A stretch of DNA of 64,000 nt from Minisyncoccota bacterium (lineage in GTDB: Bacteria > Patescibacteriota > Minisyncoccia > Phycocordibacterales > UBA9973): contig JAGOQI010000002.1 of the NCBI GenBank assembly GCA_017991515.1, forward strand, positions 15,088-79,087. Direction: 5' to 3'. Below are positions 5,758 through 43,943 of the stretch, in pieces. Under the pieces are notes generated by a model. The model saw only the letters and a program-made list of their open reading frames with translations, was not told the DNA's origin and searched no databases. The stretch's first letter is position 1; every line of letters begins with the position of its first letter. The position numbers and the translations under genes were made by a program.

Positions 5758-8043
5758 ATGCGTTTGCAGAATATAGAAATATCTGGATTCAAGTCGTTTG
5801 CCAAAAAAGCAAACCTTTCTTTTAGCGCACCAGTAACTGCTGTTGTTGGGCCAAATGGTTCAGGTAAGAGTAATGTTGTTGAGGCATTTCGTTTTGTTCT
5901 AGGCGAACAATCTATGAAGAGCATGAGAGGAAAGAGTGGTTCTGATCTTATCTTTAAAGGAGGTGCTAATTCACCAAAACTCTCGAGAGCATCTGTCACT
6001 ATTACATTTGATAACTCTGACAAAGTCTTTGCCTTCCTGTCTGCGCAGGCAGGTCAAACTGGAGAAATAGCTTCTCCTGTACTTTTTGACACTGTGACAT
6101 TTTCTCGTGAACTTTTTGCCGATGGTACTAGCAAGTACTCTATGAATGGCACTGAAATAAAACTCAAACAAATGGTCGAGTTACTTTCTTCTGTAAATAT
6201 TGGTACCTCTAGTCACCATATCATTTCTCAGGGTGAAGCAGATGGGATATTGCGAGCTAATGCTAAAGATCGCCGGGGCATACTTGAAGATGCTTTGGGT
6301 CTTAAAATTTATCACCATCGTATTAGAGAAAGTGAATCAAAGCTGACTAAAACACTTGAGACTCTTAAAGAAGTTTCTTTGCTGAGGAGAGAGCTTGCTC
6401 CACATTTAAACTTTCTTAAAAAACAAGTTGAAAAGATAGAGAAGGGTAGAGTTATTAGAGACGAGCTAAAATCTGCGTTAGTCAGATTCCTTTCTACAGA
6501 AAAAGACCATCTTTCAAAAGAGGAAAATCGTATCAAAGAAGCAATGTCTTTGATACAAAATCAAAAATCTTCTTTAGAAAAACAATTATCAGATTTACCA
6601 GAGAAAAATGCAGACTCAGGATATGAAATCATTAAAGAAATAGAGAAACAAAAAAGCTTACTTATTTCTCTACAAGAAAAAAGAAGATCATTAGAGCAAA
6701 AAGTAGGTAGGTTTGAGGGTGCTATAGAAGCACACAGAAGTATTTCTCAGAGACAAAATAATAATGTCGCTCAAGGACCAAGCATCTCTTTTGCACCAAC
6801 AGAATACAATCAAATACTCTCTGACATTGAATTTTTTGTTTCTTCTATAAAAAATGCAAAAAGCCTTGAGTCTGTAAATGAAGCAATAATAAAACTTACT
6901 CCACTTATAGAAAGACTAAAAGCTCGAGCACCAGAAGATAAAAAGATAGACCAAATAAATACAGATATCCCAGATATTAGAGAAACGGTTTTGGAGCTGG
7001 AAGCCTTACAAAAAGAGCTTATACCTCTTATAAAACAAGAACAAGAAGCTTCTTTAAATATTGTTTCTCTAGAAAAACAAAGAGAACAAGCATTGTTGAC
7101 AAGTGCATCTTCTACAGAGTCTCGCTATAAACTCGGTAGCGATATTAAACAATGTGAAGCAGAACTTCAAATACTAGCTGTTACAAAAAGCGCTTTTATC
7201 CAAAGAAAAGAAAACTTTGATCAAGACATAAAAGAAGCTGCATTTTTATTTGGCCCAAGCTTTTTGCACGAATTACATACTTCTAATGCGGAAAATGATT
7301 TAGACACACACGATTTAAAAAGGTCTATAGATAGGCTTAAAATCAGATTAGAAGAACACAGTGGTATAGGTAATGATGTTGTGACTGAATACGAAAGTAC
7401 AAAAGAGCGTGATGCATTCTTAACTCGTGAACTTATCGACATAGAAACTAGTGTTAAAACATTAAGCTCTCTAATAGTCGATTTGAAAAAGGTTCTTGAT
7501 GAAAAATTTACAAAAGGTGTCGAAACTATTAATACTCGTTTTGGAGAATTTTTCAAAACTATGTTTGGAGGAGGAAGTGCTTTCTTATCTATCACTATTG
7601 AAAAAGGTAGAAAGAAAAAAACTGATGAAGACGATATAGGTAACTTTAATGAGGAAGACCTGCCTGCGCAGGCAGGAGAAGGTTTTGAAAGAGGGATAGA
7701 AGTACACGTGAATCTTCCAGAGAAAAAAGTCAAAGAACTCAACATGCTCTCAGGTGGAGAGCGATCTCTTGTTTCCATTGCGCTTCTCTTTGCTATTTCT
7801 CAAGTAAATCCGCCTCCATTTCTAGTACTCGACGAGACAGACGCTGCGCTAGACGAAGCAAACTCTCGGCGCTATGGAGATATGGTAGAGCGGCTCTCAG
7901 AGTACTCTCAGCTCATTGTGGTCACTCACAACCGCGAAACTATGTCCCGCGCCTCTGTGCTCTATGGTGTCACCCTCGGTTCAGACAGTGGTTCCAAACT
8001 CCTTTCTATCAAGTTTGACGAAGCAGTTAAAGTTGCGAAGTAA
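5758..8043 (+). CDS. smc: short SMC-like chromosome segregation ATPase (761 aa)
   Basis: N-terminal Walker A VVGPNGSGKSNV; C-terminal ABC signature LSGGERSLVSIALLFAI and Walker B LVLDETDAALD; long coiled-coil between them. Confidence 0.8.
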   Translation: MRLQNIEISGFKSFAKKANLSFSAPVTAVVGPNGSGKSNVVEAFRFVLGEQSMKSMRGKSGSDLIFKGGANSPKLSRASVTITFDNSDKVFAFLSAQAGQTGEIASPVLFDTVTFSRELFADGTSKYSMNGTEIKLKQMVELLSSVNIGTSSHHIISQGEADGILRANAKDRRGILEDALGLKIYHHRIRESESKLTKTLETLKEVSLLRRELAPHLNFLKKQVEKIEKGRVIRDELKSALVRFLSTEKDHLSKEENRIKEAMSLIQNQKSSLEKQLSDLPEKNADSGYEIIKEIEKQKSLLISLQEKRRSLEQKVGRFEGAIEAHRSISQRQNNNVAQGPSISFAPTEYNQILSDIEFFVSSIKNAKSLESVNEAIIKLTPLIERLKARAPEDKKIDQINTDIPDIRETVLELEALQKELIPLIKQEQEASLNIVSLEKQREQALLTSASSTESRYKLGSDIKQCEAELQILAVTKSAFIQRKENFDQDIKEAAFLFGPSFLHELHTSNAENDLDTHDLKRSIDRLKIRLEEHSGIGNDVVTEYESTKERDAFLTRELIDIETSVKTLSSLIVDLKKVLDEKFTKGVETINTRFGEFFKTMFGGGSAFLSITIEKGRKKKTDEDDIGNFNEEDLPAQAGEGFERGIEVHVNLPEKKVKELNMLSGGERSLVSIALLFAISQVNPPPFLVLDETDAALDEANSRRYGDMVERLSEYSQLIVVTHNRETMSRASVLYGVTLGSDSGSKLLSIKFDEAVKVAK
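6036..6055 (-). repeat. GC-rich palindromic element GACCTGCCTGCGCAGACAGG, copy inside smc
   Basis: Near-perfect 18-bp palindrome with core CTGCGCAG in AT-rich coding DNA; encodes FLSAQAGQ in-frame. Confidence 0.8.
7657..7676 (+). repeat. GC-rich palindromic element GACCTGCCTGCGCAGGCAGG, second copy inside smc
   Basis: Perfect 18-bp palindrome CCTGCCTGCGCAGGCAGG; encodes DLPAQAGE in-frame. Confidence 0.8.
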
Positions 8044-8085
8044 ATCAAAATTAGTTATAAATAAAGAAAAAGGAGGTTAATTTTT

Positions 8086-8280
8086 ATGAGTAATTTAAAT
8101 ACAAAGGAACCTCTTCAAGTAAAAGAGGTCTCCAGGTTGCCAGAGTGTAATTTTTGCAAAGAAGAAGCAAATATTCAAACTGCTGATGGTGGTATGGAGA
8201 TTAATTTATGTGGTTTAGATAATCACCCTGAATACGAAGACATACCAATGGTTAGTCTTGTTCTTGTAAAAGCTGAATAA
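8086..8280 (+). CDS. hypothetical small protein (64 aa)
   Basis: One of the few ORFs in the window with a strong SD-like AAGGAGG 8 nt upstream; bounded by a terminator downstream. Confidence 0.5.
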   Translation: MSNLNTKEPLQVKEVSRLPECNFCKEEANIQTADGGMEINLCGLDNHPEYEDIPMVSLVLVKAE

Positions 8281-8288
8281 AATAATTT

Positions 8289-8320
8289 ATCCCTTCGCTT
8301 TTTTACGAAGGGATTTTTTC
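8289..8320. terminator. bidirectional intrinsic terminator
   Basis: CCCTTCG...CGAAGGG hairpin flanked by an A-run on the left and a T-run on the right; sits between convergent genes. Confidence 0.6.
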
Positions 8321-9640
8321 TTTTATTAATTCCTCGAGCTTCATACCTCTTGAAGCTTTTACAAATATTGTTTTATTTTTTATATCTAATTTGTCGAAGT
8401 AATCTTTTGCGTCAGTGGTATTCTTATAAAACATAAAAGGGAAGTTGTCTTTTGATTGATAAAATCTTGGTCCAACAACTATTACAACATCTTTTTCCTC
8501 GCGTAATTTTTCTAGTAGATCTAATATTTCTTTGTGAACCATTTGTTCTTCTTCGCCCATCTCGAACATGTCTCCAGTTATAATAATCCTCTCGCCATTT
8601 TTAGTTTGCCTAAAGAAATCTTTCAAAGCAAGTTCCATACTAGAAGGATTTGCATTATAACAATCAAGTATTATTTTATAGTTTCCACCATTTATTATTT
8701 GAGACCTCTTTAGTGTTGGTTCATAAGAGGCTACAGCTTCTTGAATATCTTTAACATTTACATCAAAGTATTCTCCTACAGCAATAGCAGCTAGTATGTT
8801 TGGTTCATTATAAGAGCCGAAGAGGGAAGAAGAGAAATCTTGACCATCATAAGTAACACCCGCATAAAGTGAAGACTTACTATTAAAATCTTTTGATGGG
8901 TATATAACAGTTTCGTTATCTTTACTATCTTCGATAAGGTCAGAAATGTTTTTATTCACAAAAGTTTTTGCATTATTTTCTTGAGCCCAGTCATATATTT
9001 CTTTGTTTGCTTTTCTTACACCAGCGAGAGATCCAAAACCTTCTAAATGGTCAGCCCCATTGTTTGTAACCAAGACATAGGTCGGGGAGAATATGTTTAA
9101 TAATTTCGTATGTTCTTCTAAATGATTTGCCCCTATTTCTATAACAGCAATTTCGGTATCTAAAGGCATTGCAAGTATTGTTAAAGGTAAACCTATATCA
9201 TTATTAAAATTTCCTTTTGTTGTGTGAACTTTATATTTCTTTTGAAGGACAGCAGAGATTAATTCCTTTGTTGTTGTTTTCCCATTTGATCCACCGATAG
9301 CTATTATAGGAATAGAAAATTGCGAACGATGTATTTTTGCTAGTTCTTCCAAAGTTTCTCTGGTATTTTCTACAAAAAGAGATTTATTGATGTTTTTATT
9401 TTCTTCTAAATCAGTTATAGCGTAAAGAGCTCCTTTTTCTAAGGCTTGGCTAACAAACATATTTCCGTCGAAGTTTTCGCCTTTTATACCTATATAGATA
9501 TCGCCAGGAGACAGAGCTCTAGTATCTGTAGATATATTAAAAGATTTTTCAGATATTAGTTTATAGATTTCCTCTGGGTTCATTGTTACATTATGGTGTT
9601 TATTGTACTTTTTCGCAAAATTTTTCTTTATTATTGCCAA
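8303..9640 (-). CDS. murF: UDP-N-acetylmuramoyl-tripeptide--D-alanyl-D-alanine ligase
   Basis: Mur ligase P-loop GSNGKTTTKELI; N-terminal MurF-type motif IYIGIKGENFDGNMFVSQALEKGA; 445 aa. Confidence 0.75.
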   Translation of the reverse strand: MAIIKKNFAKKYNKHHNVTMNPEEIYKLISEKSFNISTDTRALSPGDIYIGIKGENFDGNMFVSQALEKGALYAITDLEENKNINKSLFVENTRETLEELAKIHRSQFSIPIIAIGGSNGKTTTKELISAVLQKKYKVHTTKGNFNNDIGLPLTILAMPLDTEIAVIEIGANHLEEHTKLLNIFSPTYVLVTNNGADHLEGFGSLAGVRKANKEIYDWAQENNAKTFVNKNISDLIEDSKDNETVIYPSKDFNSKSSLYAGVTYDGQDFSSSLFGSYNEPNILAAIAVGEYFDVNVKDIQEAVASYEPTLKRSQIINGGNYKIILDCYNANPSSMELALKDFFRQTKNGERIIITGDMFEMGEEEQMVHKEILDLLEKLREEKDVVIVVGPRFYQSKDNFPFMFYKNTTDAKDYFDKLDIKNKTIFVKASRGMKLEELIKEKIPS

Positions 9641-9682
9641 ATATCAAGAGTTGTTGTAGTATCACAAAAAAATTCTTTTATT

Positions 9683-10201
9683 ATGCTAAATCAAACTCCA
9701 ACTTCTCGTTTCGAAGAAACGAGCACCTCAGCGCTTGCTGTCGCCATTTTAATTTTTTGTGAAAATGTTAAGAAAAGGACAAAAAATGTTCACTTAACCA
9801 GTATTTTAAAAAAGACAGAAATTAGAGATGAAGAAAAAAACACGATTTTTGCTAATCGTGATAAGTCTCTGGTTAAAAAACTCTTTAGTTTTTGTAAAGA
9901 CTCTCTTTCTTTAGAAAGAGGGGAATCCACAAAAATCATTGTTAAGGAAATACCTAACAAAATTCCCTTAAAAGATGATCAGAGATTTCTTTTAAGATTT
10001 TTATTAAAAAATATTGAAAAAAGAAATCCGAGACCATGGACACTTGGTTCAAAGCAAGACAGGATTATAGATGCTAAAGGCAAGCCATTTTCTTATCTTT
10101 CAGGGCCTGAATACGGCTTAAGTTTCCCAGATTTGGAAAATTTAATAAGAGTAAAACAAAAGATTAAAGAACCTGAGGCTGTAGGTCAAATGGTTTATTA
10201 A
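9683..10201 (+). CDS. hypothetical protein
   Basis: ORF trimmed to the internal Met (MLNQTPTS...) to avoid overlapping the murF start; ends at a terminator. Confidence 0.4.
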   Translation: MLNQTPTSRFEETSTSALAVAILIFCENVKKRTKNVHLTSILKKTEIRDEEKNTIFANRDKSLVKKLFSFCKDSLSLERGESTKIIVKEIPNKIPLKDDQRFLLRFLLKNIEKRNPRPWTLGSKQDRIIDAKGKPFSYLSGPEYGLSFPDLENLIRVKQKIKEPEAVGQMVY

Positions 10202-10213
10202 ACTAACTCGCTA

Positions 10214-10240
10214 AAAGCCCCTATTTTAGGGGCTTTTTTT
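10214..10240 (+). terminator. rho-independent terminator
   Basis: AAAAGCCCCTATTTTAGGGGCTTTTTTT. Confidence 0.75.
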
Positions 10241-10278
10241 ATTAAAATAGCTTTATTTTAAAAGCTTAGAATAAAAGG

Positions 10279-10306
10279 TTGACTTTAAATCTCAGTTGTA
10301 TATAAT
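10279..10306 (+). promoter_or_regulatory. sigma70-type promoter upstream of 16S rRNA
   Basis: TTGACT, 16-nt spacer, TATAAT, about 160 nt upstream of the 16S 5' end. Confidence 0.6.
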
Positions 10307-10469
10307 AGCCGTTACCTCCCAAATAGGGAGTCGTTTTTTGAAAATTGTATAGAGAACGCGAGTTCTCAAAGTCTATTTTATGTAATTTGAGTATTTTCAA
10401 ACTTGGGCAAAAGTTTTTCTTTTGCCTCATTCTAGTCGGCATTTTATTTATAAAAGCCAACTTATATTA

Positions 10470-12008
<1,539 letters not shown>

Positions 12009-12189
12009 TTGAGATTGTTCTGATTGTACCTCAGGTACACAGGATTGATACGGTTGATCATTGTTCTGCAAAGAATAATGGTGTTGTGGTAAGCGACGTA
12101 ATGCTTACTCCTTGCGCCAAGGTTATGGCGCAAAAATCCCTGGTGTGTATTCTATAGAGCACATCATGGTAGAATGAGGCAATAGAAAG

Positions 12190-12714: not shown

Positions 12715-12813
12715 CAACAAAAAATCTTTTTATAGTAGCCTCTACTGACAATGCACTTTACATTATCTTTTTTTATTTTAAGAACCAGGAAACTTGCTGA
12801 TTAATTTTTAGAT

Positions 12814-12830
12814 ACACTCTCGTATTGTGT
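12814..12830. promoter_or_regulatory. NrdR-box-like palindrome upstream of nrdB
   Basis: ACACTCTCGTATTGTGT (ACAC...GTGT ends) overlaps the putative nrdB promoter. Confidence 0.3.
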
Positions 12831-12878
12831 ATAATAGATAAACAAGTTTTTATCAGAGTTCATAAAGAGATTTAATTC

Positions 12879-14150
12879 ATGGCGATACTCTTAGTACAAA
12901 AGAGAAATGGGACTGTTGTTGATTTTGACCGATCTCGTATAGAGAGCGCAATTTCTCGTGCGTACCAAGCATCAAAAGTGCTTATTGATATTGTCTCTCT
13001 TTCTGATCTCGTTGATGAAATAGTACAAGCACTTGAAAAGGTTTACCCAGAGGGTAATGTTCCTGATGTTGAGGAAATACAGAATTTTGTTGAAAAAGCT
13101 ATTGCTGATAAGGGTGATTTTGAGGTTGCTAGAAACTATATTTTATATAGAGAAGAACGAAACAAAGAGCGAAAACGAGATATTTTCAAAAAAAGGGTTC
13201 ATTTAAAGCCTTATGAATATCCTGAGCTCTATGAATATGTAAGTGCTATAAGGCATTCTTATTGGATCCACACAGAATTCAATTTTGTTGGGGACGTTCA
13301 GAACTTCAAGGTGAATGTTGATGAAAAAGAGCAAAATGCTATTAAAAACGCAATGCTTGCTATCGCTCAAATAGAAGTAGCGGTTAAAACATTTTGGGGA
13401 GATATATACAAGAAGATGCCTAAGCCAGAAATAGGAGCAGTAGGGGCGACATTTGCAGAAAGTGAAGTTAGACATACTGACGCATACTCACACTTACTTG
13501 AGATATTGGGACTAAACGAAGTATTTCAAAATATTGGTGAAGTACCAGCGCTCATGAAGCGTGTTAATTATCTAGAGAAATCATTAGCGAAAGCTCGAAG
13601 TGAAGATAATAAAGACTATAGTCAGTCAGTTCTATTATTTTCTCTATTTATTGAGCATGTTTCTTTATTTTCTCAATTTTTAGTTATAATGTCATTCAAT
13701 AAGTACAAAAACTTGTTTAAAGGTATTTCAAACGCTGTTGAGGCAACATCCAAAGAAGAGCAAATTCACGGATTATTTGGGATAGACCTGATAAATACCA
13801 TAAAAGAAGAACATCCTGAATGGTTTGATCAGATTTTTGAAGAAGAGGTGATAGGTTTGTGCGAAGAGGCATTTGAATCAGAGAAGGATGTCGTAGATTG
13901 GATTTTTGAAAAAGGTGAGATAGATTTTCTCCCAAAAGCAGTTGTTATAGAGTTTATAAAGCAAAGATTTAATAATTCACTTCAAAGTATCGGTATACGC
14001 AAAATATTTGATACGGACGAGGAACTCTTAAAAGAATCTGAATGGTTTAATGATGAGGTTATCGGAACAAAACATGGAGATTTCTTCAATAAAAAATCAA
14101 TTAACTACAATAAGAAGGGTAAAAGTATAACGAGCGACGATCTTTTTTAA
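12879..14150 (+). CDS. nrdB: ribonucleotide reductase class I beta subunit (R2) with an N-terminal ATP-cone
   Basis: N-terminal VQKRNGTVVDFDRSRIESAISRA is an ATP-cone; the ferritin-like R2 core has FAESEVRHTDAYSHLLE and the FS.F radical-site region. Confidence 0.85.
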   Translation: MAILLVQKRNGTVVDFDRSRIESAISRAYQASKVLIDIVSLSDLVDEIVQALEKVYPEGNVPDVEEIQNFVEKAIADKGDFEVARNYILYREERNKERKRDIFKKRVHLKPYEYPELYEYVSAIRHSYWIHTEFNFVGDVQNFKVNVDEKEQNAIKNAMLAIAQIEVAVKTFWGDIYKKMPKPEIGAVGATFAESEVRHTDAYSHLLEILGLNEVFQNIGEVPALMKRVNYLEKSLAKARSEDNKDYSQSVLLFSLFIEHVSLFSQFLVIMSFNKYKNLFKGISNAVEATSKEEQIHGLFGIDLINTIKEEHPEWFDQIFEEEVIGLCEEAFESEKDVVDWIFEKGEIDFLPKAVVIEFIKQRFNNSLQSIGIRKIFDTDEELLKESEWFNDEVIGTKHGDFFNKKSINYNKKGKSITSDDLF

Positions 14151-14182: not shown

Positions 14183-15907
14183 ATGTATTGGTTAAACGAA
14201 AACAGTAAAAAATTTTTAGCAAAAGGATATCTCTTAAATGGTGAGAGTGCGCAAGACCGTATCCGAGAAATTGCCACTATCGCAGAGAGGCATTTGAATA
14301 AACCTGGATTTGCTGATAAGTTTTATGATTACATGTCTAAAGGATACTATTCTTTGGCAACTCCTATTTGGGCAAACTATGGCCGTACTCGAGGTCTTCC
14401 TATTAGTTGCTTTGGAAGCTATGTCGCTGATGATATGAGTCGCATACTATATACACATGGAGAAGTTGGAATGATGACCAAATATGGTGGTGGAACATCT
14501 GCTTACTTTGGCGGACTTCGACCGCGTGGATCTGAGATAAAAGATAATGGACATTCTTCTGGATCAGTTCATTTTATGGAGCTTTTTGATAGTCTTATAA
14601 ATATTGTTAGTCAGGGTACTGTACGAAGAGGTCATTGCGCACCATATCTTCCAGTAGAACATGATGATATTGAAGAGTTTTTAAATATCGGGAAAGAAGG
14701 TCACCCTATCCAAGAGTCTACATATGGGGTAACCGTTACAGATGCGTGGTTGAAGGCTATGGTAGAAGGAGACCAGGAGAAAAGAAAGATTTGGGCAAAA
14801 ATAATTCAGCGAAGAACTGAAATTGGTTATCCATATATTTTATTTAGTGACACAGTCAACAACAATACAGTTGATGTGTACAAAGATAAAAATATGAAAA
14901 TCTATGGAAGTAATCTTTGTTCTGAAATTTGTCTTCCTACAAACGATGAACTTTCGTTTGTCTGTTGTTTATCATCAATTAACCTTCGACACTACAATGA
15001 GTGGAAAGATACTGATGCTGTTGAAACTCTGGCAATGTTTTTGGACACTGTTATAGGAGAATTTGTTGAGAGACTTGAGAGTCTTAGAGACAGTGAAGAT
15101 TCTAAAAAACAATCAGCTTTTTATTTTATGCAAAGAGCACACAAGTTTGCCAAAGAGCATCGTGCACTAGGATTGGGAGTACTTGGTTGGCACACATTTT
15201 TACAAGAGAGTAATATTCCTTTTGAGAGTGTGGAAGCAAGTAGACTAAATGAAGAAATTTTTTCTTTGATTAAAGAGAAGGCTTATAAAGCGTCTAGCGA
15301 TATGGCTAAAGACTATGGTGAGCCAGAAGTTTTGAAAGGTTATGGTCGTCGTAACACCACTTTGCTAGCTATTGCCCCAACTACTTCTTCTGCTTTTATT
15401 TTAGGACAAGTCTCTCAAGGTATTGAACCTTTTATGTCAAATATCTTTGTTAAAGATGTCGATAAGATGAAAGTGACAATCAAAAACCCAACTCTTATTG
15501 CTCTTCTTGAAGAAAAAGGAGTTAACACTGCTGAAACTTGGAATAGTATTCGCGATAATGATGGTTCTGTTCAACATCTAGACTTTCTTACTGAGCACGA
15601 AAAGAAAGTTTTCAGAACATTTAGTGAAATAGATCAAAAGGCAATTCTTGACCAAGCAGGAGATAGGCAAAAATATATTGATCAAGCGCAGTCACTCAAT
15701 GTTATGATTGATCCGTCTATTTCAGCCAAAGATTTGAATTCACTTTATCTTCAAGCATGGGAGAAGGGTGTTAAGACACTTTACTATCAACACAGTATGA
15801 ATGCTGCCCAACAATTTGGCAGAAAGAAACTACAAGAAAATGAAGCTAAGAAACCTAAAGTTATAATCGCTAGTCAAGACAATATTTGTGTTGGATGTGA
15901 GGGGTAG
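14183..15907 (+). CDS. nrdA: ribonucleotide reductase class I alpha subunit lacking an ATP-cone
   Basis: 574 aa; catalytic core motifs (ISCFG, GGGTSAYFGGLRPRGSEI, SGSVHFMELFD, VRRGHCAPYLPVEHDDIEEF); C-terminal CVGCEG redox cysteine pair. Confidence 0.85.
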   Translation: MYWLNENSKKFLAKGYLLNGESAQDRIREIATIAERHLNKPGFADKFYDYMSKGYYSLATPIWANYGRTRGLPISCFGSYVADDMSRILYTHGEVGMMTKYGGGTSAYFGGLRPRGSEIKDNGHSSGSVHFMELFDSLINIVSQGTVRRGHCAPYLPVEHDDIEEFLNIGKEGHPIQESTYGVTVTDAWLKAMVEGDQEKRKIWAKIIQRRTEIGYPYILFSDTVNNNTVDVYKDKNMKIYGSNLCSEICLPTNDELSFVCCLSSINLRHYNEWKDTDAVETLAMFLDTVIGEFVERLESLRDSEDSKKQSAFYFMQRAHKFAKEHRALGLGVLGWHTFLQESNIPFESVEASRLNEEIFSLIKEKAYKASSDMAKDYGEPEVLKGYGRRNTTLLAIAPTTSSAFILGQVSQGIEPFMSNIFVKDVDKMKVTIKNPTLIALLEEKGVNTAETWNSIRDNDGSVQHLDFLTEHEKKVFRTFSEIDQKAILDQAGDRQKYIDQAQSLNVMIDPSISAKDLNSLYLQAWEKGVKTLYYQHSMNAAQQFGRKKLQENEAKKPKVIIASQDNICVGCEG

Positions 15908-15954
15908 AGTTATTTTAATAATTAATATATAGTGTTTTTGTTGTACCGAATGAT

Positions 15955-16210
15955 CGCGCTTACTCATAAGAGTATGTGAGGAAAGTCCGAACACATAACG
16001 ATTTAATTCGTACAGGTAGTGGGTAATACCCATCGTGGGCAACCATAGGGCTGCGAACAGTGACGAATCCCTTTAGTGGGAGTGAAACGGCTAAATGCCT
16101 ATCCGTGTGCAAGACCGTGCTGAGAAATCAGAGTGTCGCTTGAGGATGACAGTAATATCATTCCCAGATAAATGATCACTAGAACAGAACTCGGCTTATG
16201 AGTACAACAA
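15955..16210 (+). ncRNA. rnpB: RNase P RNA (compact bacterial type)
   Basis: P4 5' strand GAGGAAAGTCCG near the start and P4 3' strand ACAGAACTCGGCTTA near the end; P1 pairing TACTCATAAG/CTTATGAGTA; CCATAGGGCTGCGAACAG and GTGAAACGG motifs; terminator directly downstream. Confidence 0.7.
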
Positions 16211-16213
16211 ATA

Positions 16214-16243
16214 TCAAAAAAATCCGCACAACGCGGATTTTTT
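16214..16243 (+). terminator. rho-independent terminator after rnpB
   Basis: AAAAAAATCCGCACAACGCGGATTTTTTT. Confidence 0.75.
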
Positions 16244-35929: not shown

Positions 35930-35988
35930 ATATAACGGTCATATACTTATATCACAATTTTGGGCCTTAGAAAAGGGTTTTTAGACCT

Positions 35989-36222: not shown

Positions 36223-36270
36223 AATGCTATCCTATAGTTTCATTTAATAAATCACAAGAACTTACACTTT

Positions 36271-37686
36271 ATGCATCATTTTTCAAAAAAGACAAAGATT
36301 ATCGCAACCATTGGGCCGGGGTCAGAAAATAAACAAACACTAACTACTTTGTTTTCAAAAGGCGTTGATATTTGTCGTACAAATATGAGTCATGATGATC
36401 AAGGCATTCATGAAAAAAGAATTAAACTTATCAGATCTGTTGCAAAAAAAGAGGGGAGGCCAATAGCTATATTACAAGACTTATCTGGTCCGAAAATTCG
36501 TATTGGGGATTTTGAAAGTGCACCGGTAGAACTTATTGTTGGTAAAAAATTTATTTTAAGTGGCAATAAAGATGTTGTCGGAGATGTGAATCGAGTTTAT
36601 TTCAACTATCCTCATATAGAAAAAGATATTAAAAAAGGGATGATAATAATGCTCGATGATGGTAAGAAAAAACTCGTAGTAGAGAAAGTTATCGGCGTGG
36701 AAGTTCACACAAAAGTTTTAGTCGGTGGAACTACCAAGAGTCGCAGAGGAGTAAATATTCCTGGTGCGTATTTATCTATCGATGCTATGACTACAAAAGA
36801 TAAGTCTGATCTGTCTTTCGGTATAAAGATGGGAGTAGACTTCGTAGCATTATCTTTCGTTCGAACTGCAAAGGATATAGAGAATTTAAGAACTTTGATA
36901 AAAAAGGCAAAAGGTACACAAGCTATCATTGCTAAAATAGAAACACAAGAAGCAGTAGACAATATAGATGAAATTATAGCTAGTTCTGATACAGTAATGG
37001 TAGCTAGAGGAGACTTGGCAGTAGAGATAGGTCCAGAAAAAGTTCCAACTGTGCAAAAGATGATTATCAGAAAATGCAACGAACTAGGTAAACCTGTAGT
37101 TGTAGCAACTCAAATGTTAGAAAGTATGATAAATGCTCCAGTACCAACTCGTGCTGAAGTTTCTGATGTTGCTAATGCTATTTTTGATGGAGCAGATGCT
37201 GTGATGCTCTCTGAAGAAACAGCTCTTGGTAAATATCCAGTTGAGGCAGTAGATATGATGAATCATGTTGCCTTACAAGTAGAAAAAGAAATAGGGACAC
37301 ACAGAAGACTCAAAGTTCATTCAAATGACATTGTTGACTCAGTGTCTTCTTCTGTAGTTCATAACGCCGAAGATGTTGGAGCAAAACTAATAGTAGCCTT
37401 AACTGAAACTGGTTCAACACCGAGAATGATAGCCCGCTACAAACCACAACAGCCAGTGGTAGTACTGACCCCTCATGAAAGTGTTGTTCGTCAATCACAA
37501 ATAATTTTTGGTTGTTATCCTTTGCTTATGAAAAGTTTTACAGGTAGTACTCAGCTTATCAAAACCATAGGTCCAAAACTTATTGAACTAGGTTTAGTTA
37601 AAAAAGGAGATAGTGTTGTAGTTAGTGCTGGAGTACCTTTTGGAACACCTGGAACGACTAATATGCTCATGATTTTGAAGGTTTAG
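36271..37686 (+). CDS. pyk: pyruvate kinase
   Basis: KTKIIATIGPGS..., MVARGDLAVEIG and the C-terminal domain; 471 aa. Confidence 0.9.
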   Translation: MHHFSKKTKIIATIGPGSENKQTLTTLFSKGVDICRTNMSHDDQGIHEKRIKLIRSVAKKEGRPIAILQDLSGPKIRIGDFESAPVELIVGKKFILSGNKDVVGDVNRVYFNYPHIEKDIKKGMIIMLDDGKKKLVVEKVIGVEVHTKVLVGGTTKSRRGVNIPGAYLSIDAMTTKDKSDLSFGIKMGVDFVALSFVRTAKDIENLRTLIKKAKGTQAIIAKIETQEAVDNIDEIIASSDTVMVARGDLAVEIGPEKVPTVQKMIIRKCNELGKPVVVATQMLESMINAPVPTRAEVSDVANAIFDGADAVMLSEETALGKYPVEAVDMMNHVALQVEKEIGTHRRLKVHSNDIVDSVSSSVVHNAEDVGAKLIVALTETGSTPRMIARYKPQQPVVVLTPHESVVRQSQIIFGCYPLLMKSFTGSTQLIKTIGPKLIELGLVKKGDSVVVSAGVPFGTPGTTNMLMILKV

Positions 37687-37716
37687 ACTCTTGCCCAGAA
37701 ATGCTATAATAAGGAT

Positions 37717-38079
37717 ATGAATATTTCAATCAAAACAACAAATATTGAATTAACACCAGCGCTTAAAGATTATACAGAAAAGCGTATCTCAGGGATAAAT
37801 AAGTTTACAGGCGAAGAGGTAACAGCTGCTGTCGAAATAGGTAAGACAAGTAATCATCATAAAAATGGTGAAGATCTTTTTAGAGCAGAGGTAAATGTCA
37901 CAACTTCTTTAGGTAAACAACTTCGAGCAGTATCAGAGAAATCAGATTTGTATGAAGCTATAGATGATGTGCGAGAGCAAATGGTGAGAGAACTTAAATC
38001 TGCAAAAGGTAAAGAAGATGCTCTGTGGAAAAAAGGTGCGAGAAAAATAAAATCTATGATGAGAGGTTTTCGTAGCTAA
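37717..38079 (+). CDS. hpf: ribosome hibernation promoting factor (RaiA/HPF family)
   Basis: MNISIKTTNIELTPALKDYTEKRI matches the HPF N-terminus. Confidence 0.8.
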   Translation: MNISIKTTNIELTPALKDYTEKRISGINKFTGEEVTAAVEIGKTSNHHKNGEDLFRAEVNVTTSLGKQLRAVSEKSDLYEAIDDVREQMVRELKSAKGKEDALWKKGARKIKSMMRGFRS

Positions 38080-38890
38080 CCTTCTTTCCATTTTCTGGGA
38101 TAACTTCTTCTATTACAAACTGCCCTGCCTGCGCAGACAGGTCCCATTCTAGGTGGGCTTTTGTTATTTTTATTCGTCTATCGTTTTGGAAAAAATAAGT
38201 ACCGATAGAGCCAAAATAAGCACGATACTTTCTATCATTTGTTGTCGCTTCCTCGTTTAGATTTATTTCGCCCTCTTCTTTGGATATTTTCTTGCAATGT
38301 GAAGCTTCTCCTGCCTGCTCTTGCGCTTTTATTGTTTCATCAAAAATACTTTTTATAACAGAAGGTAATAGTTTTATAGCAACTGAGTTTAGTTTTTCTC
38401 GAAGTGTTGGAGTTGTGTCTGTAGGGTCTATGCTAACTTCTTCTGAAACAAATATAGGACCGCTGTCGAGTTCGTAACGCATTTGTTGTATGGCTATACC
38501 TGTTTTTTTATCACCGTTTAAAATAGCACTCTCTACAGGAGTAGCTCCGCGATACTTCGGTAGTAGGGAATAGTGAACATTTATAGTCCCATATTTGGGT
38601 AAGTTGATCACTCTCTCAGGGATTATTTTGCCATAAGCAATAACGACAAATAAATCCCAAGATTCTTTTGATAATTCTTCAAAGAATTCATCATTTAGTT
38701 TCTCTGGTTGTAAAACTTTTATATCATTTTCTTGACCCCAAACTTTTGGTCCTGGGGCTTTTAGAGTCATACCGCGACCTGATGGCCTATCAGGGTTTGT
38801 GACTACTAGAGAAGGGGATAAAACATGCTCTTTAAGAGTTTCCAAGAAAGAAACAGTAAAATCCGGCGTCCCAAAAAATGCAATTTTCAT
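38054..38890 (-). CDS. fmt: methionyl-tRNA formyltransferase
   Basis: MKIAFFGTPDFTV, VVTNPDRPSGRG and INVHYSLLPKYRGATP motifs; its 3' end overlaps the hpf 3' end by 26 nt (convergent). Confidence 0.85.
   Translation of the reverse strand: MKIAFFGTPDFTVSFLETLKEHVLSPSLVVTNPDRPSGRGMTLKAPGPKVWGQENDIKVLQPEKLNDEFFEELSKESWDLFVVIAYGKIIPERVINLPKYGTINVHYSLLPKYRGATPVESAILNGDKKTGIAIQQMRYELDSGPIFVSEEVSIDPTDTTPTLREKLNSVAIKLLPSVIKSIFDETIKAQEQAGEASHCKKISKEEGEINLNEEATTNDRKYRAYFGSIGTYFFQNDRRIKITKAHLEWDLSAQAGQFVIEEVIPENGKKVSYENLSS
38124..38143 (-). repeat. GC-rich palindromic element GACCTGTCTGCGCAGGCAGG inside fmt
   Basis: Near-perfect 18-bp palindrome with core CTGCGCAG; encodes DLSAQAGQ in-frame; a degenerate relative (CCTGCCTGCTCTTGCGC, encoding AQEQAGEA) lies about 180 nt away at 38308-38326. 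Confidence 0.8.
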
Positions 38891-38943
38891 AAGGCTATAT
38901 TAACATAAAAGTAGATATTCGCCTGTAAGAAATATAGTTTATT

Positions 38944-38975
38944 CTCTGCGGATGCCTGCGCAGAGTCCTCGATTC
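38944..38975. repeat. intergenic GC-rich palindromic element CTCTGCGGATGCCTGCGCAGAGTCCTCGATTC
   Basis: Inverted near-identical copy (31 of 32 positions) of the element at 47851-47883; contains the CTGCGCAG core. Confidence 0.75.
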
Positions 38976-39020
38976 ATAAAATATATTTCTGACGGGCTCA
39001 AAGTAATTAGGCAAAATATG

Positions 39021-39524
39021 TTATTTTGTCGGAGCCTCCTTGTTTGGTGGTAAGTCTTCAACATCCACAGCTTTGTCGATGAAAAGTACGCCGTTTAGAT
39101 GATCTGTCTCGTGTTGGAAGATTTGAGCAAGTAAGCCTTTGCCACTCATGACAAATTCATTTCCTTCCATATTTGTAGCTCGCACTGTTGCGGTGAGAGA
39201 TCTTTTGACCATGCCGTACTTCCATCTAACACTTAGGCAACCTTCAGAGACCATTTCTTTTTTCTTGCCAAGTTTTGTAATAACAGGATTAATAAAAACC
39301 ATATCCTCAAGAGCTTTCGGTAATGCTCTTTTTGAAACTACAAATATTCGCAGTGGTACATCTATCTGAGGAGCAGCAATAGCCACGCCGTCATCTTCAC
39401 CGTGTAAAAGTTCTTTCATTTTTTCAACTACATCTTTTATTTCTTTAGATTTTATTTCAGAGGCAGAAACTTCTTTTGCAATACTTCGAAGTGTAGCGTG
39501 GGGGGATTGGATGATACCAGGCAT
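39021..39524 (-). CDS. def: peptide deformylase
   Basis: GVAIAAPQIDV, EGCLSV and HETDHLNGVLF motifs. Confidence 0.9.
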   Translation of the reverse strand: MPGIIQSPHATLRSIAKEVSASEIKSKEIKDVVEKMKELLHGEDDGVAIAAPQIDVPLRIFVVSKRALPKALEDMVFINPVITKLGKKKEMVSEGCLSVRWKYGMVKRSLTATVRATNMEGNEFVMSGKGLLAQIFQHETDHLNGVLFIDKAVDVEDLPPNKEAPTK

Positions 39525-39529
39525 AAAAA

Positions 39530-40831
39530 TTATTTTAAATGTTTAATATACTGACTAAGCTCTGACTGCATAACTGTTTCTTGTTCTCTTGTTTCCATAT
39601 TTCGAACTATAACACTTTGTTCAACAGCTTCTTTTTGTCCGAAGATTATCACATAGGGAGCTTCACTTTTCTCTGCCACAGCGAGTTGTGCACCGAGAGA
39701 GTCTTTTGATAGACATTGAGCTACAGGCACATGGGCTTTACGAAGTATTTCAATAACAGACAGACTTTTTAACTTCGCTTCAAAACCAACTTGTATAAAA
39801 TAAATCTTTGGCTTCTTCATTATTCTTGGAGCCAAGTTTCTAAACCATGGTCGCTCTATGACGCGGTCCATACCGATAGATCCTCCCATAGCAGGAATAT
39901 CCTTTTTTGATCCAAGTGCTTTAGCTAAGTAATCATAACGACCTCCGCCAGCAATAGTCATAGAAGTACCGTCTTCTAATGTTTCTATGATTTCAAAAAC
40001 AGTGTGAGTGTAGTAAGAGAGTCCACGGACCAATGTCTTGTCTATTTGATAAGCGATACCCATCTCATCCAAATATTCTAAAACTTCTTTGAAATGCTTT
40101 TTGCCACTAGCTGATAGGAAACTTGTCGAATCTGGCGCTCCGGCATTTATTTCTATTGTTTTAGGATCTTTTGAATCCAAAATTCTCATAGGATTACTCT
40201 TGAGTCGCTCTTGGTCTATGGTTGGCAAATCTTTCAAGTGTTTCTTGTAATAATTTGTTAGTTCTCGTAAATAAGCAGGGCGAGAGTCTTTGTCACCGAT
40301 AGAATTGATAGTTACCATCAAATCTTTTCCACCAGCTTCTTCAAGTATCGTATAAATAGTTTTGATAACGAGTGCATCAACAACACTTTTTTCACTACCT
40401 AAGGCATCAACATCAAATTGATAAAACTGTCTGTAGCGACCTTTTTGAGGTTTGTCATGACGAAATACAGGACCACTGTGATACATCATCACAGGCTGAG
40501 GCTGTGACTGCATTCCTTGTTCTATATAAGCACGCATAAGACCTGCTGTTTGTTCTGGGCGCATAGCTAGATGGTCACCACCTTTGGTTTTCAAGGTGTA
40601 CATTTCTTTGTCGACAATATCAGTCCCTACACCAACAGCAGAAGTAAAAGTTTCTTCATGCTCTAGTATCGGAGTTTCAATAGGAGTAAAACCATAATAA
40701 ACAGCTACCTCTTGAGCCTTCTCGAAAAAACCTTGAAATTTGTAATAGTCGGCGCCAAATATATCTCTCATGCCTTTTGGGCTACTAATACTTTGCTGCG
40801 TCTTCTTTTTTTCAGTTGGTTTTTTATTCAT
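39530..40831 (-). CDS. hisS: histidyl-tRNA synthetase
   Basis: Class II aaRS; PKGMRDIFG... N-terminus typical of HisRS; anticodon-binding C-terminal domain. Confidence 0.9.
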   Translation of the reverse strand: MNKKPTEKKKTQQSISSPKGMRDIFGADYYKFQGFFEKAQEVAVYYGFTPIETPILEHEETFTSAVGVGTDIVDKEMYTLKTKGGDHLAMRPEQTAGLMRAYIEQGMQSQPQPVMMYHSGPVFRHDKPQKGRYRQFYQFDVDALGSEKSVVDALVIKTIYTILEEAGGKDLMVTINSIGDKDSRPAYLRELTNYYKKHLKDLPTIDQERLKSNPMRILDSKDPKTIEINAGAPDSTSFLSASGKKHFKEVLEYLDEMGIAYQIDKTLVRGLSYYTHTVFEIIETLEDGTSMTIAGGGRYDYLAKALGSKKDIPAMGGSIGMDRVIERPWFRNLAPRIMKKPKIYFIQVGFEAKLKSLSVIEILRKAHVPVAQCLSKDSLGAQLAVAEKSEAPYVIIFGQKEAVEQSVIVRNMETREQETVMQSELSQYIKHLK

Positions 40832-41405
40832 AGTTCACTTTTCCTGGGAGATAATCTATTTGTTTTAATGGCAACAATCGAAGTAGTGCTCGGCCTCGAA
40901 GATTTGCTTTCGGTAATGTACCCCAAGAGCGAGAGTCAAAGCTTCCTGCTCTGTTGTCTCCCATAACAAAGTATTGGTCTTCTAGTACTTTTACTACCAT
41001 GTTGTCTAATGATTTATGAGTAATGAAAGATTCAGACAAAGTAAAACCTTCAGGATTTTCAGCGTTTGTAATAGTCACGATTTGTCCGTTTATAGAAACA
41101 GTGTCACCTGGAAGACCAATAATTCTTTTTATAAAATATTTATCAGGTTCTGGAGGAGCTTTGAAAACTACAACGTCCCCACGCTCTGGTTCTGAAAACT
41201 TATAAGTAACTTCATCTATCAAAAGATAGTTGCCAGTTTCAAGGGTAGGACTCATAGAGCTTCCGTTTACCACGAAAGGTCTGATGATGAATTGTTGTAC
41301 AAGCATAGCCAAAGCCACTGCTGTAACTATGTATAAAACATTTTCTAGAAAAACTCTAAACTTAGACTTGCTCTGCATTGCTACTGTTGAAGTGTTTTGT
41401 TCCAT
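40824..41405 (-). CDS. lepB: signal peptidase I
   Basis: GSSMSPTL and KRIIGLPGD motifs. Confidence 0.85.
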   Translation of the reverse strand: MEQNTSTVAMQSKSKFRVFLENVLYIVTAVALAMLVQQFIIRPFVVNGSSMSPTLETGNYLLIDEVTYKFSEPERGDVVVFKAPPEPDKYFIKRIIGLPGDTVSINGQIVTITNAENPEGFTLSESFITHKSLDNMVVKVLEDQYFVMGDNRAGSFDSRSWGTLPKANLRGRALLRLLPLKQIDYLPGKVNYE

Positions 41406-41476
41406 AATTGTCCCTATTATAGTTTAAAAAAGGACACGCGACAAGAAAGCATTTTTGTAGTTTAATTAAGGAATAT

Positions 41477-42040
41477 ATGGCAATAATCATAGGTCTTGGA
41501 AATCCTACAAAAGAACATGCTTTAGATCGGCACAATGTCGGTTTTATGGTTTTGGATTTTTTAGCAGAAAAACATGAGTTCTCTTTTGAAGAGAAAAATA
41601 CTTTTAATGCACAAGTAGCGAGTTATGATTCTTTGCTTCTAGTAAAACCACAAACATATATGAATGATTCTGGGCTCTCTGCCAAGAAACTTTTCAAACA
41701 ATACAAAGAGCTCCCAATAGTCATTTATGATGATATCGATATAAATCTCGGCGAAATAAAATGTTCACTCTCTCGTGGAGCAGGCGGGCATAATGGCGTA
41801 CAAAGTATTATTGATCACTTAGGCACCAAAGACTTTTTCCGTATCCGTGTAGGTGTGCGACCAGTGCACGAAGAACTCAAAGACAAGATACTTCCACCGA
41901 CAGGTTTTCAAGATTTTCTTCTAACAAACTTTGCTCCGTTTGAAAAAGAACTCAAAGAGCAGGGGATAGCCAAAGCCGTTGCTATCATCGAAGCCCTAAA
42001 AACCAAAACTTTTGAAACTGTAATGAATGATTTTAATTAA
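41477..42040 (+). CDS. pth: peptidyl-tRNA hydrolase
   Basis: GLGNPTKEHALDRHNVGF N-terminal motif. Confidence 0.9.
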   Translation: MAIIIGLGNPTKEHALDRHNVGFMVLDFLAEKHEFSFEEKNTFNAQVASYDSLLLVKPQTYMNDSGLSAKKLFKQYKELPIVIYDDIDINLGEIKCSLSRGAGGHNGVQSIIDHLGTKDFFRIRVGVRPVHEELKDKILPPTGFQDFLLTNFAPFEKELKEQGIAKAVAIIEALKTKTFETVMNDFN

Positions 42041-42109
42041 AGAAAGAAATAAATATTTATCTGAAAATATAGAAAATATTACAGAAAAATTATTAAATTA
42101 AAAATCCGC

Positions 42110-42748
42110 TCAGATGGCGGATTTTTTGATAGGGAAAAATAGTTTTTCTCCTGTAACATGGAAGTCTTGGGTTGTGTAATAATCTTGGAAATAATGCCAC
42201 GGAATAATTCCTACACCCAAGTCACTCCTTTTTTGGATCACTGATTGTTTGTTGGACTTCTCACCTACTCTGTAAGTAAAGATATTGTGACCTAGAGGAG
42301 ATAGGTTCTGAGATTGGTTGGCGATTAGGTCAACCATAGCATAGACCATCAGGTGCTCGTTAATTGAATGATCGAATAGAGGGTTATGTATTAGTGTTTC
42401 TTGAGAACACAAAAAGTTTCCTATTTGTGCTGAACAGATCTGTCCTTGTATAGACAAACATCCAAGATCAAAAGGGTTTACTTTATGATTTTCAGGCTCT
42501 ATTTCCATTGCTATTTCGGCACCTAGTACTAAGCCTCGAAATTCTTTTGTAAACTTAAATTTGTTTTTCCCTCGCCAATCGGTAAAGAATTCCTTTAAGT
42601 TCTCTGGTGGAGTTATCGGCACAATCTTCAAGTCTTTTAAACTTCCGTGTATTTTTCCAAGCTCAAATTTTTGTAGAACAGTCATATGTTTATTTTTCCT
42701 TATACTATAGCTTGTGGCTTCTTTGTCAAATCTAAAAATACCTCTCAA
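42110..42748 (-). CDS. hypothetical protein
   Basis: ORF only; the true start may be the internal Met (MTVLQKF). Confidence 0.4.
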   Translation of the reverse strand: MRGIFRFDKEATSYSIRKNKHMTVLQKFELGKIHGSLKDLKIVPITPPENLKEFFTDWRGKNKFKFTKEFRGLVLGAEIAMEIEPENHKVNPFDLGCLSIQGQICSAQIGNFLCSQETLIHNPLFDHSINEHLMVYAMVDLIANQSQNLSPLGHNIFTYRVGEKSNKQSVIQKRSDLGVGIIPWHYFQDYYTTQDFHVTGEKLFFPIKKSAI

Positions 42749-42797
42749 AATGAGAGGTATTTTTTATTATTAGCTAGAACAGTTCTAGCTAATCTAT

Positions 42798-43943
42798 TTA
42801 TTCAGCTTTTGTTCCTGTCTGCGCAGGTAGGTCTGTATGAGCAGATTCTGTAGGCAGGTCTTCTAGCTTTTGTTCACCGAAGACAAGTGTCATCTTTTGT
42901 TCTTTTGGTTCAAAAAGATTCACTGTGAAAGGATAGTTTTTACCGAGTTGCAATGCTTCTTTTAATTTCTCTTCTCCTCCAAATGTAGAGTTGTGCACTA
43001 GGCCCGCAACACCTTCTTGGATAGATACGAGGGCACCGTGTTTGTTGTATTTGATAACAACACCTTTAATAACATCTCCTCGCTTTAGAGTTTTTTCGAA
43101 AGCTTTCCAAGGATTGTCTTTCAGAGCTTTGATAGAAAGAGAGATTTTACCTTCTTTGATATCTATTATTTTTGCTTTAACCATATCTTTAACCTTGAAC
43201 ATACTTCGAGGATCTTCTACAAGTCCCCAGTCTAGTTCACTGATGTGTACCAAACCTTCAAGACCATCTTCTAGTTTCAAGAATACTCCAAAGTCAACAA
43301 CGCCAGTGATCTCGCATGATAGTTCGTCACCAACAGCGTATTTACTGATAACTTCTTGTCGCTCTTCAGGATTACTTTCTTTTTCAGAGAAAATAAGTTT
43401 GCCATCTTTTGGGTTTGCAGAAATCATAGTTACTGCGATTTTTGTTCCAACAAGCTTCTTAAGTTCTTTCAAAATCTTGTCTTTGTCTGAGTCTTCTACA
43501 CGAGGGTAGTGATCAGGCTTTAGTTGTGAAGCTGGTAAGAAACCAGAAACACCTTGCCAGTCAATGATAAGACCACCTTTGTTAGCATCTTTGATAGTTA
43601 AATCAAAAATAACTTTGTCTTTGATAGCTAGGTCTGCTTCACTCCATATCAAAGCTTGTTTTGCTTCTTTTAGAGAAAGTTCTATATAACCATCTTCGTT
43701 TTCAATATCAACAACTTTCGCTTTCACTCCGTCGCCAACATTCGCCTTTTTTAATAAATCACGAACAGCCATGAACTCTCGTCCATAAATAATACCTGTA
43801 CCGTACGGTGTTAGGTCTATATAAACTGCTGCTTTGTCTACTGCAATAATAGGTCCTTCAACCAACTCTTCAAGAGAGGGTCGAACTTTCACTACTTCTT
43901 CTGTAGATGAATCTTCTTTAATTGTCTCTGTGTCTGTTTTCAT
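42798..43943 (-). CDS. rpsA: 30S ribosomal protein S1 (short form with several S1 domains)
   Basis: Repeated S1 domains (GVVDFGVFLKLEDGLEGLVHISEL); start trimmed to MKTDTE. Confidence 0.8.
   Translation of the reverse strand: MKTDTETIKEDSSTEEVVKVRPSLEELVEGPIIAVDKAAVYIDLTPYGTGIIYGREFMAVRDLLKKANVGDGVKAKVVDIENEDGYIELSLKEAKQALIWSEADLAIKDKVIFDLTIKDANKGGLIIDWQGVSGFLPASQLKPDHYPRVEDSDKDKILKELKKLVGTKIAVTMISANPKDGKLIFSEKESNPEERQEVISKYAVGDELSCEITGVVDFGVFLKLEDGLEGLVHISELDWGLVEDPRSMFKVKDMVKAKIIDIKEGKISLSIKALKDNPWKAFEKTLKRGDVIKGVVIKYNKHGALVSIQEGVAGLVHNSTFGGEEKLKEALQLGKNYPFTVNLFEPKEQKMTLVFGEQKLEDLPTESAHTDLPAQTGTKAE
42814..42833 (-). repeat. GC-rich palindromic element GACCTACCTGCGCAGACAGG at the 3' end of rpsA
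   Basis: 18-bp near-palindrome with core CTGCGCAG; encodes DLPAQTGT in-frame, just before the stop. Confidence 0.75.

Follow-up and report, generated by a model that had tools for sequence, protein, structure and literature searches.

An 18-bp palindrome inserted in frame in essential genes of Patescibacteria, probably a very small mobile element

Four near-identical copies of a short GC-rich palindrome, CCTGCCTGCGCAGGCAGG, were found in a stretch of 64,000 nucleotides (the window) from the genome of a Minisyncoccota bacterium (contig JAGOQI010000002.1, positions 15,088 to 79,087). They lie within three essential genes, those for an SMC-like ATPase, methionyl-tRNA formyltransferase (fmt) and a protein with S1 RNA-binding domains, and in none of the three is the reading frame broken. 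Judged against relatives that are 85-93% identical and have no copy, each of the four is a lineage-specific insertion of exactly 18 nt, or six codons. The four sites are probably copies of a non-autonomous selfish mini-element that has this 18-mer as its entire body and is active throughout the Patescibacteria (the candidate phyla radiation). What was observed is that copies are gained as exact, blunt blocks of 18 nt, mostly between a purine and a pyrimidine (R^Y), that they cannot break a reading frame and decay by point mutation, and that they survive in protein loops and tails, in spacers and in RNA genes that are redundant. Precise loss of copies perhaps also occurs.

In the first-pass annotation of the window the repeat was described as a 20-mer too frequent to have arisen by chance. 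Matches to this 20-mer are confined to 6036-6055, 7657-7676, 38124-38143 and 42814-42833, each on both strands since the sequence is a palindrome, and 100 dinucleotide-preserving shuffles of the window gave 0 matches, which places the four far above chance. The core CTGCGCAG was counted 5 times where 0.17 occurrences would be expected, and the GC content of the window is 32-45%. The palindrome thus stood but its length did not: the conserved unit is the 18-bp perfect palindrome CCTGCCTGCGCAGGCAGG, which the window copies match with 0-2 mismatches, and the extra GA or TC of the 20-mer belongs to the adjoining host DNA. As had been noted, the four copies share one reading phase, which gives FLSAQAGQ, DLPAQAGE, DLSAQAGQ and DLPAQTGT. 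The host genes and the copies within them are as follows.

5758-8043, plus strand: SMC-like ATPase, 761 aa; matches Smc heads in the PDB at E=4e-74; identical to NCBI MBP6857734.1
6036-6053: copy 1, CCTGTCTGCGCAGGCAGG, in the SMC-like gene; 1 mismatch; encodes LSAQAG after Phe (split codon TT^T)
7659-7676: copy 2, CCTGCCTGCGCAGGCAGG, in the SMC-like gene; perfect; encodes LPAQAG; lies in the acidic variable loop that precedes the strand with the signature motif
38054-38890, minus strand: methionyl-tRNA formyltransferase (fmt), 278 aa; product identical to NCBI MBP6857763.1
38124-38141: copy 3, CCTGCCTGCGCAGACAGG (plus-strand letters), in fmt; 1 mismatch; encodes LSAQAG
42798-43943, minus strand: S1 RNA-binding domain protein, 381 aa from NCBI's ATG; exact match to MBP6857769.1
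42814-42831: copy 4, CCTGTCTGCGCAGGTAGG (plus-strand letters), in the part of the S1-domain gene for the C-terminal tail; 2 mismatches; encodes LPAQTG

The fifth occurrence of CTGCGCAG, at 38956 in the spacer between def and fmt, was rejected as a copy, having only the central 11 nt in common with the element and a 7-bp stem of its own. This spacer hairpin (38943-38966) is CTCTGCG-GATGCCTG-CGCAGAG, with TGCCTGCGCAG as the common central 11 nt, and may be a remnant of the element or a chance terminator-like stem.

As single-stranded DNA the 18-mer forms a hairpin (-6.5 kcal/mol) with a loop of 4 nt on a stem of 7 bp, and the mutated copies of the window fold more weakly. It begins with CC and ends with GG, its six codons contain no stop in any of the three phases, and the other strand is also free of stops because the sequence is a palindrome. 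Nor can any of the codons formed at the junctions (NNC, NCC, GGN and GNN) be a stop. With a length of six codons and no stop in any phase or on either strand, no insertion can therefore truncate or frameshift the gene that receives it.

Evidence that the copies are insertions comes from filled and empty relatives (loci and proteins are numbered L and P respectively). The suggestion that the peptides are lineage-specific was borne out by the orthologs of SMC, Fmt and S1, which show gaps of 6 aa in their place, and the exact 18-nt difference within filled/empty pairs agrees with the proposal that palindromic mini-insertions are tolerated as short in-frame peptides. Among 120 Fmt orthologs listed, L[PS][AT]Q[AT]G is present in only 9, at just two positions, and the others have a clean 6-residue gap; one protein with no insert (P0253) is 97.4% identical to a carrier (P0065). 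At the DNA level a filled Fmt locus (L121) reads TAT TTC TTC CTG TCT GCG CAG GCA GGT GCA, whereas its 87%-identical relative (L122) reads TAC TTT TTT GCA. The site of SMC copy 1, VFAF^QTG, reads VFAF------QTGD in orthologs that are 85-90% identical; it is also filled in P0124, P0129 and P0146, whose own relatives at 85-90% identity are empty. SMC copy 2 is absent at the same position from all 119 other orthologs listed, and two other lineages (P0130 and P0162) have copies of their own elsewhere in the acidic variable loop. Between the SMC genes of L154 and L155 (81% nucleotide identity) there are two separate 18-nt blocks, 15 nt apart. Copy 4 of the S1 protein is missing from three proteins that are 92-93% identical (P0243, P0245 and P0247), which was confirmed by DNA comparison with L157, while two S1 relatives, L151 and L153, have 18-nt copies of their own at a protein tail (the S1 tail and the N-terminus).

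Polymorphism between strains, raised as a question in the first-pass annotation, was also found. A single LSAQAG separates the SMC proteins P0258 and P0146, which have 99.1% identity, and their genes (L156 and L154) are 97.65% identical in nucleotides with one 18-nt block present in one and absent from the other. The block is read as a gain because the outgroup L155 is empty, and the gain is recent. Copies also decay, those in L123, L150, L153 and L154 having 3-4 mismatches. Wherever the change could be polarised, the copy had arisen as a clean insertion of 18 nt and not through substitutions. The flanks of filled sites match the empty relative of the carrier itself and not other carriers, so that a transfer of filled alleles between lineages as patches is unsupported. 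An ancestral conserved peptide motif, or an artefact of assembly or adapters, could have explained why four proteins contain the same peptide, but is already refuted by the 6-aa gaps in close relatives, by the point mutations in copies, by the recovery of copies in independent studies and with different assemblers (NCBI metagenome-assembled genomes (MAGs), JGI, Logan), and by the fact that the insertion is always a clean 18 nt in frame. Ancestry does explain the degenerate copy that had been proposed within fmt (AQEQAGEA, 38308-38326). This segment aligns with the conserved Fmt segment xEQxEExASHC, in which Q192 is invariant in 42 orthologs, and the claim was dropped.

When the filled/empty pairs are read with the fewest extra substitutions, the palindrome lies between codon bases 2 and 3 (TT^T, AA^T, GA^G). 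No host base is duplicated or lost across the pairs, which differ by exactly 18 nt, and in general there is no target-site duplication. The base at -1 of 52 coding sites was C once against 10.7 expected and A or G in 43, and the base at +1 was C or T in 37. The codons split at these sites are those for Gly, Asp, Glu, Phe and Asn; codons for Lys, Ala, Thr and Pro are absent. In L116 the 18-mer (about 4866-4883, a position derived from the coordinates of the host open reading frame (ORF)) is flanked on both sides by the 7-nt direct repeat CGCATAA, an oddity and the sole copy seen with anything resembling a target duplication. Within the unit, the paired positions 5 and 14 are altered (C to T, or G to A) in about half of the copies with a single mismatch. 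Such variants were seen in window copies 1, 3 and 4 and in L121, L150, L151, L153 and L156, and the A14 form is common to several copies at Fmt site A in separate lineages. This is either a mutational hot spot or a sign of two subfamilies. Palindromes with the same arms and another centre also occur: a 20-bp form, CCTGCCTGCCGGCAGGCAGG, in L095 (23-42) and L043 (3415 and about 4815), not within long ORFs, and one of 21 bp in L089 (4724), inside an ORF of 1179 aa. These cases are too few to decide whether only lengths divisible by three enter genes.

The 18-mer amounts to two 9-bp arms with nothing between them, and this, together with the 20-bp and 21-bp variants, could be taken to mean that each copy is the footprint or remnant, left by excision or internal deletion, of some larger element with terminal inverted repeats ending CCTGCCTGC...GCAGGCAGG. 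Such an origin is nevertheless very unlikely. A search of about 1 Mb of loci for paired half-sites with cargo between them was negative, the genes between paired copies are ordinary, target duplications are lacking, and a large insertion in smc, fmt or the S1 gene should kill a haploid cell before it could be excised.

Further genomic copies, which had been predicted, are numerous. A scan of genomes, one per species, gave at least 120 matching stretches, and the same 18-mer was found in at least 69 loci of Patescibacteria; the 69 named as such among the matches listed come from about 19 lineages. These include WWE3, Dojka- and Saccharibacteria and Minisyncoccia, several Microgenomates (Woese-, Gottesman-, Roizman-, Beckwith- and Shapirobacteria) and several Parcubacteria/Paceibacterota (Nomura-, Kaiser-, Uhr-, Yonath-, Wildermuth- and Zambryskibacteria). 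Within the 69 loci there are 73 copies, most of them perfect or one mismatch off, with 42 in long ORFs and 21 outside any ORF of at least 100 aa; many of the intergenic copies sit just downstream of genes. The 42 copies in long ORFs are read as LPAQAG in 36 cases, as PACAGR in 6 and as CLRRQ in none. Their hosts include core genes such as ftsW, topA, gatB (twice), polA, a murD-like gene, recJ, an addA-like gene, cysS, argS, uvrA, pheT, obg, uvrC, truB and rplO, in addition to fmt and SMC. The density is about 1 per 10-16 kb, with 4 copies in the 64-kb window.

We calculate that at 40% GC chance would give less than one match in 1e11 bases, whereas for the degenerate pattern at 65% GC the estimate is ~3e-10 per base, or tens of chance matches in the collection. 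On the latter estimate the matches in GC-rich genomes outside the Patescibacteria (Streptomyces, Terriglobia, Burkholderiales and others) were taken as chance, and low-GC matches were treated as real. The latter include two MAGs of low-GC Bacteroidota, namely Sphingobacteriales bin43 (L014, L044, L090, L099 and L106) and Saprospiraceae (L005 and L055), in which the copies are intergenic and lie within longer conserved repeats, e.g. GTTAACGAYGGTAGCGG-[18-mer]-CATCCTTTTTT, some of them extended to perfect palindromes of 34 bp (L099). Five metagenome records (L158, L159, L161, L162 and L163) share one intergenic repeat (cctaaatcc...) in which two perfect 18-mers stand 32 nt apart. Carriage by phages was rejected, as only 25 matches were found in 2.9 million viral contigs, mostly GC-rich ones, which is about the chance level. 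Full-text searches of the literature for the sequence, the peptide and GC-rich palindromes in Patescibacteria gave no match.

The identity of the 18-mer over such a range bears on the possibility, also put forward in the first-pass annotation, of a DNA uptake or recombination signal. Selection or uptake-biased recombination would preserve such a functional signal, for example an uptake sequence for competence machinery or the site of a conserved DNA-binding protein, in perfect form, and its genic copies would lie where the peptide does least harm. It would readily account for the same 18 bases in about 19 lineages of one phylum among the matches listed, mostly with 0-1 mismatch, for the fixation of synonymous positions within the unit in genomes of 32-40% GC, for the filling of the same sites in separate lineages, and for the placement of intergenic copies just downstream of genes. 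The uptake sequences of Pasteurellaceae and Neisseria also occupy tolerant reading frames. However, the DNA uptake sequences (DUS) of Neisseria, the uptake signal sequences (USS) of Pasteurellaceae and the cyanobacterial HIP1 are 8-12 nt long, have a density of about one per kb and are products of substitution. The 18-mer resembles them as a short, over-represented, clade-wide motif found in genes in preferred frames, and HIP1 is likewise palindromic, but it is 18 nt long, far sparser and arises by insertion. Its copies are patchy among near-identical strains, being present or absent at 97-99% identity, and some have decayed; the flanks of filled sites resemble the empty relative and give no sign of patch transfer; two copies can lie inside one broken tRNA-Gln copy; and low-GC Bacteroidota carry the 18-mer within longer repeats. 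A DNA signal is therefore not supported and is an unlikely explanation.

Outside protein-coding genes, gene copies for tRNA-Gln are interrupted by the 18-mer in seven loci (L166 and L168 being the same sequence).

After nt 10, in the D stem (GGATCG^TCTAATGG): one copy each in L048, L049, L054, L165, L166, L168 and L169
Positions of interrupted tRNA-Gln genes: L049 6730-6820; L165 800-907; L166 4227-4334; L048 3540; L054 372

In four of these (L165, L166, L168 and L169) the anticodon loop is interrupted as well, by a second 18-mer at 37/38 or 35/36. Deletion of the 18-mer restores the tRNA-Gln call in L049, L165, L166, L168 and L169, and an intact twin lies nearby in the first four of these. 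Wherever the contig extends far enough, an uninterrupted tRNA-Gln gene is present at a distance of 25-400 nt; none is visible in L169. The interrupted genes are read as spare copies that tolerate insertions because their acceptor stems are flawed (in the 5' acceptor strands). The recurrence at tRNA-Gln is far above what gene size predicts and marks a strong hot spot.

These tRNA genes could point to a hairpin that acts at the RNA level, as a mini-intron cut from transcripts or as a processing or pausing signal, leaving proteins and tRNAs unaffected. The hairpin is stable, and one copy in tRNA-Gln sits at 37/38, the classical position of tRNA introns. Against this, a phase bias of 36:6:0 and a length of exactly six codons would not be expected of an insert that is removed, the tRNA copies that contain it are flawed in the acceptor stem and lie near an intact twin, and T5 and A14 variants both occur on the sense strand although only one of them keeps the RNA pairing. 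An RNA-level role is extremely unlikely on this evidence.

The coding copies occupy loops, turns and tails of proteins, in line with what had been suspected. Both SMC copies of the window are in loops that are absent from the Smc head of B. subtilis (5xg3), Fmt copy 3 forms the beta-hairpin turn between strands 238-250 and 255-264 in an AlphaFold2 (AF2) model (pLDDT 94.8), the other Fmt hot site being the preceding turn of the same model, and those of S1 lie in tails at the protein ends. Distant lineages with different DNA have copies in the same proteins and loops, which speaks for an influence of tolerance on where copies are found. Multiple insertions were met in loci of other lineages. The metagenomic L164 encodes an Fmt of 394 aa (1399-2580) with four copies, all in the PACAGR phase and two of them directly head to tail (2035 and 2053), and a LigT-like gene (3728-4330) with a fifth copy, also in the PACAGR phase. 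The SMC-like gene of L167 (3460-5703) has three copies in the LPAQAG phase, two of them 15 nt apart, and a further copy is found in this locus at the start of trmD.

If the 18-mer is a mobile element, insertions would strike DNA broadly and most would be removed by selection, leaving survivors in intergenic DNA, redundant tRNA-Gln copies, surface loops, beta-turns and tails. The surviving coding copies would mostly encode the small flexible peptide LPAQAG, the 18 bases presumably being simply transcribed and translated. Movement would need an enzyme acting in trans that recognises the hairpin or a cruciform. As a guess, the likeliest route would be a single-strand cut-and-join reaction of the HUH/Y1 type at replication forks, similar to that of repetitive extragenic palindromes (REPs) and REP-associated tyrosine transposases (RAYTs), which is favoured because there is no target duplication and because of the hairpin form; the former also argues against DDE transposases. 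Blunt ligation of a self-annealing 18-mer into breaks would be a less likely route. No recurrent nuclease or transposase was seen among the neighbours of the intergenic copies.

Short palindromic repeats that invade genes are known, and what is unusual here is the size, the frame-safe design, the blunt insertion and the identity across a phylum. The first-pass annotation had compared the repeats with Rickettsia palindromic elements (RPEs), which are about 150 bp long, comprise ten families and do not occur outside Rickettsia (PMC10969869). The likeness in behaviour holds, both being palindromic repeats found in frame in unrelated housekeeping genes of a reduced genome with an extra peptide compatible with the fold (PMC10969869), but membership of the family does not. 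The 18-mer encodes 6 aa, is a single sequence and is found phylum-wide in Patescibacteria, whereas RPEs add tens of residues with ~100-150 bp; the host is a 'Candidatus Pacebacteria/Paceibacterota' MAG of the Paceibacteria type, from another phylum than Rickettsia, and the sequences are called unrelated on length (18-mer against a 150-bp consensus) and not on direct alignment. Bacterial MITEs (transposable elements that are miniature and have inverted repeats), e.g. Correia elements, are non-autonomous, have inverted ends and may form in-frame fusions with host ORFs (PMC10969869). They are, however, 50-500 bp long and have target-site duplications, the 18-mer having neither property.

REPs are extragenic, imperfect and species-specific, 20-40 nt long, with a conserved GT(A/G)G beside the stem. 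REP/REPIN-RAYT (Y1/HUH) systems share with the 18-mer the short GC-rich hairpin repeats, the lack of target-site duplication, the many copies and a presumed single-strand mechanism, but 42 of the 73 copies in the Patescibacteria loci listed lie in long ORFs and are not extragenic. A RAYT (Y1 transposase) gene is typically flanked by REPs; none was seen in the 64 kb of the genome covered by the window. GC-rich palindromes are also known from mitochondria, as the GC clusters of yeast, the PstI palindromes of Neurospora, the double-hairpin elements of Allomyces and the 'byps' of Magnusiomyces. They too are GC-rich in an AT-rich compact genome and flank or enter tRNA genes and sometimes coding sequence, and the core of the Neurospora palindrome, built on CTGCAG, is also 18 nt. 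They are nevertheless organellar, have other sequences, are usually 30-50 nt long and are mostly intergenic, and byps are bypassed by ribosomes whereas the 18-mer is always readable in frame. The window, which carries housekeeping genes and those for 16S rRNA and RNase P RNA, comes from the chromosome of a bacterium and not from an organelle. Beyond generic features, nothing that defines the RPE, REP/RAYT, MITE or uptake-sequence families is found in the 18-mer.

Several observations weigh against a mobile 18-mer. The closest filled/empty pair also differs at one base beside the insertion. Fmt site A, SMC site 1 and tRNA-Gln nt 10/11 are each occupied, at one and the same nucleotide, in several lineages of which the closest relatives have no copy. 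This requires hot spots, very narrow tolerance or precise loss, and in a neighbour-joining tree the Fmt non-carrier P0253 nests among carriers that share the A14 variant, so that precise loss is as parsimonious as repeated gain. The preference for the LPAQAG phase is not universal, all five copies of L164 being in the PACAGR phase. To our knowledge a body of 18 bp is smaller than that of any known mobile element, and near-perfect identity across a phylum is odd for a purely selfish element and could reflect selection on the DNA sequence itself. REP/RAYT systems need a conserved tetranucleotide by the hairpin, whereas the flanks of the 18-mer vary and show the R^Y bias only. Pfam searches with about 40 ORFs of the window returned housekeeping families only, with no candidate transposase, HUH protein, reverse transcriptase or nuclease, and the genes between paired copies in L044, L095 and L119 contain no enzyme candidate.

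Some other features of the window were noted.

10463-12009: lone 16S rRNA gene, with no 23S nearby
12879-14150 and 14183-15907: ribonucleotide reductase, the small subunit having an N-terminal ATP-cone domain and the large subunit showing none, an unusual placement of the allosteric domain
15938-16214: RNase P RNA, directly after the reductase genes
50373-52402: a run of four small genes, all of which match the type IV secretion pilin family PF18895

It is possible, though we advance this only tentatively, that the 18-mer is the smallest mobile DNA unit yet seen, a self-complementary 18 bp that is copied, inserted bluntly and perhaps excised precisely by undescribed machinery conserved or shared across the Patescibacteria, and also present in some Bacteroidota, with hot spots in tRNA-Gln, which would make it a natural 'linker-insertion mutagenesis' lengthening the loops of essential proteins throughout a phylum. 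The tiny genomes of Patescibacteria cannot afford the loss of essential genes, yet core genes (smc, fmt, S1, gatB, polA, topA and aminoacyl-tRNA synthetase genes) have repeatedly taken the same six-codon insert. LPAQAG-type segments in the proteins of these bacteria should accordingly be annotated as inserts and not as conserved motifs. If the 18-mer is indeed mobile, it would show how small a mobile element can be, with every insertion frame-safe by design, and would provide a simple 18-base marker for the strain-level population genetics of uncultured lineages. It would also be a recurrent source of loop expansion in Patescibacteria proteins, and would point to a DNA-handling activity, or an uptake or binding system, common to a very deep bacterial radiation.

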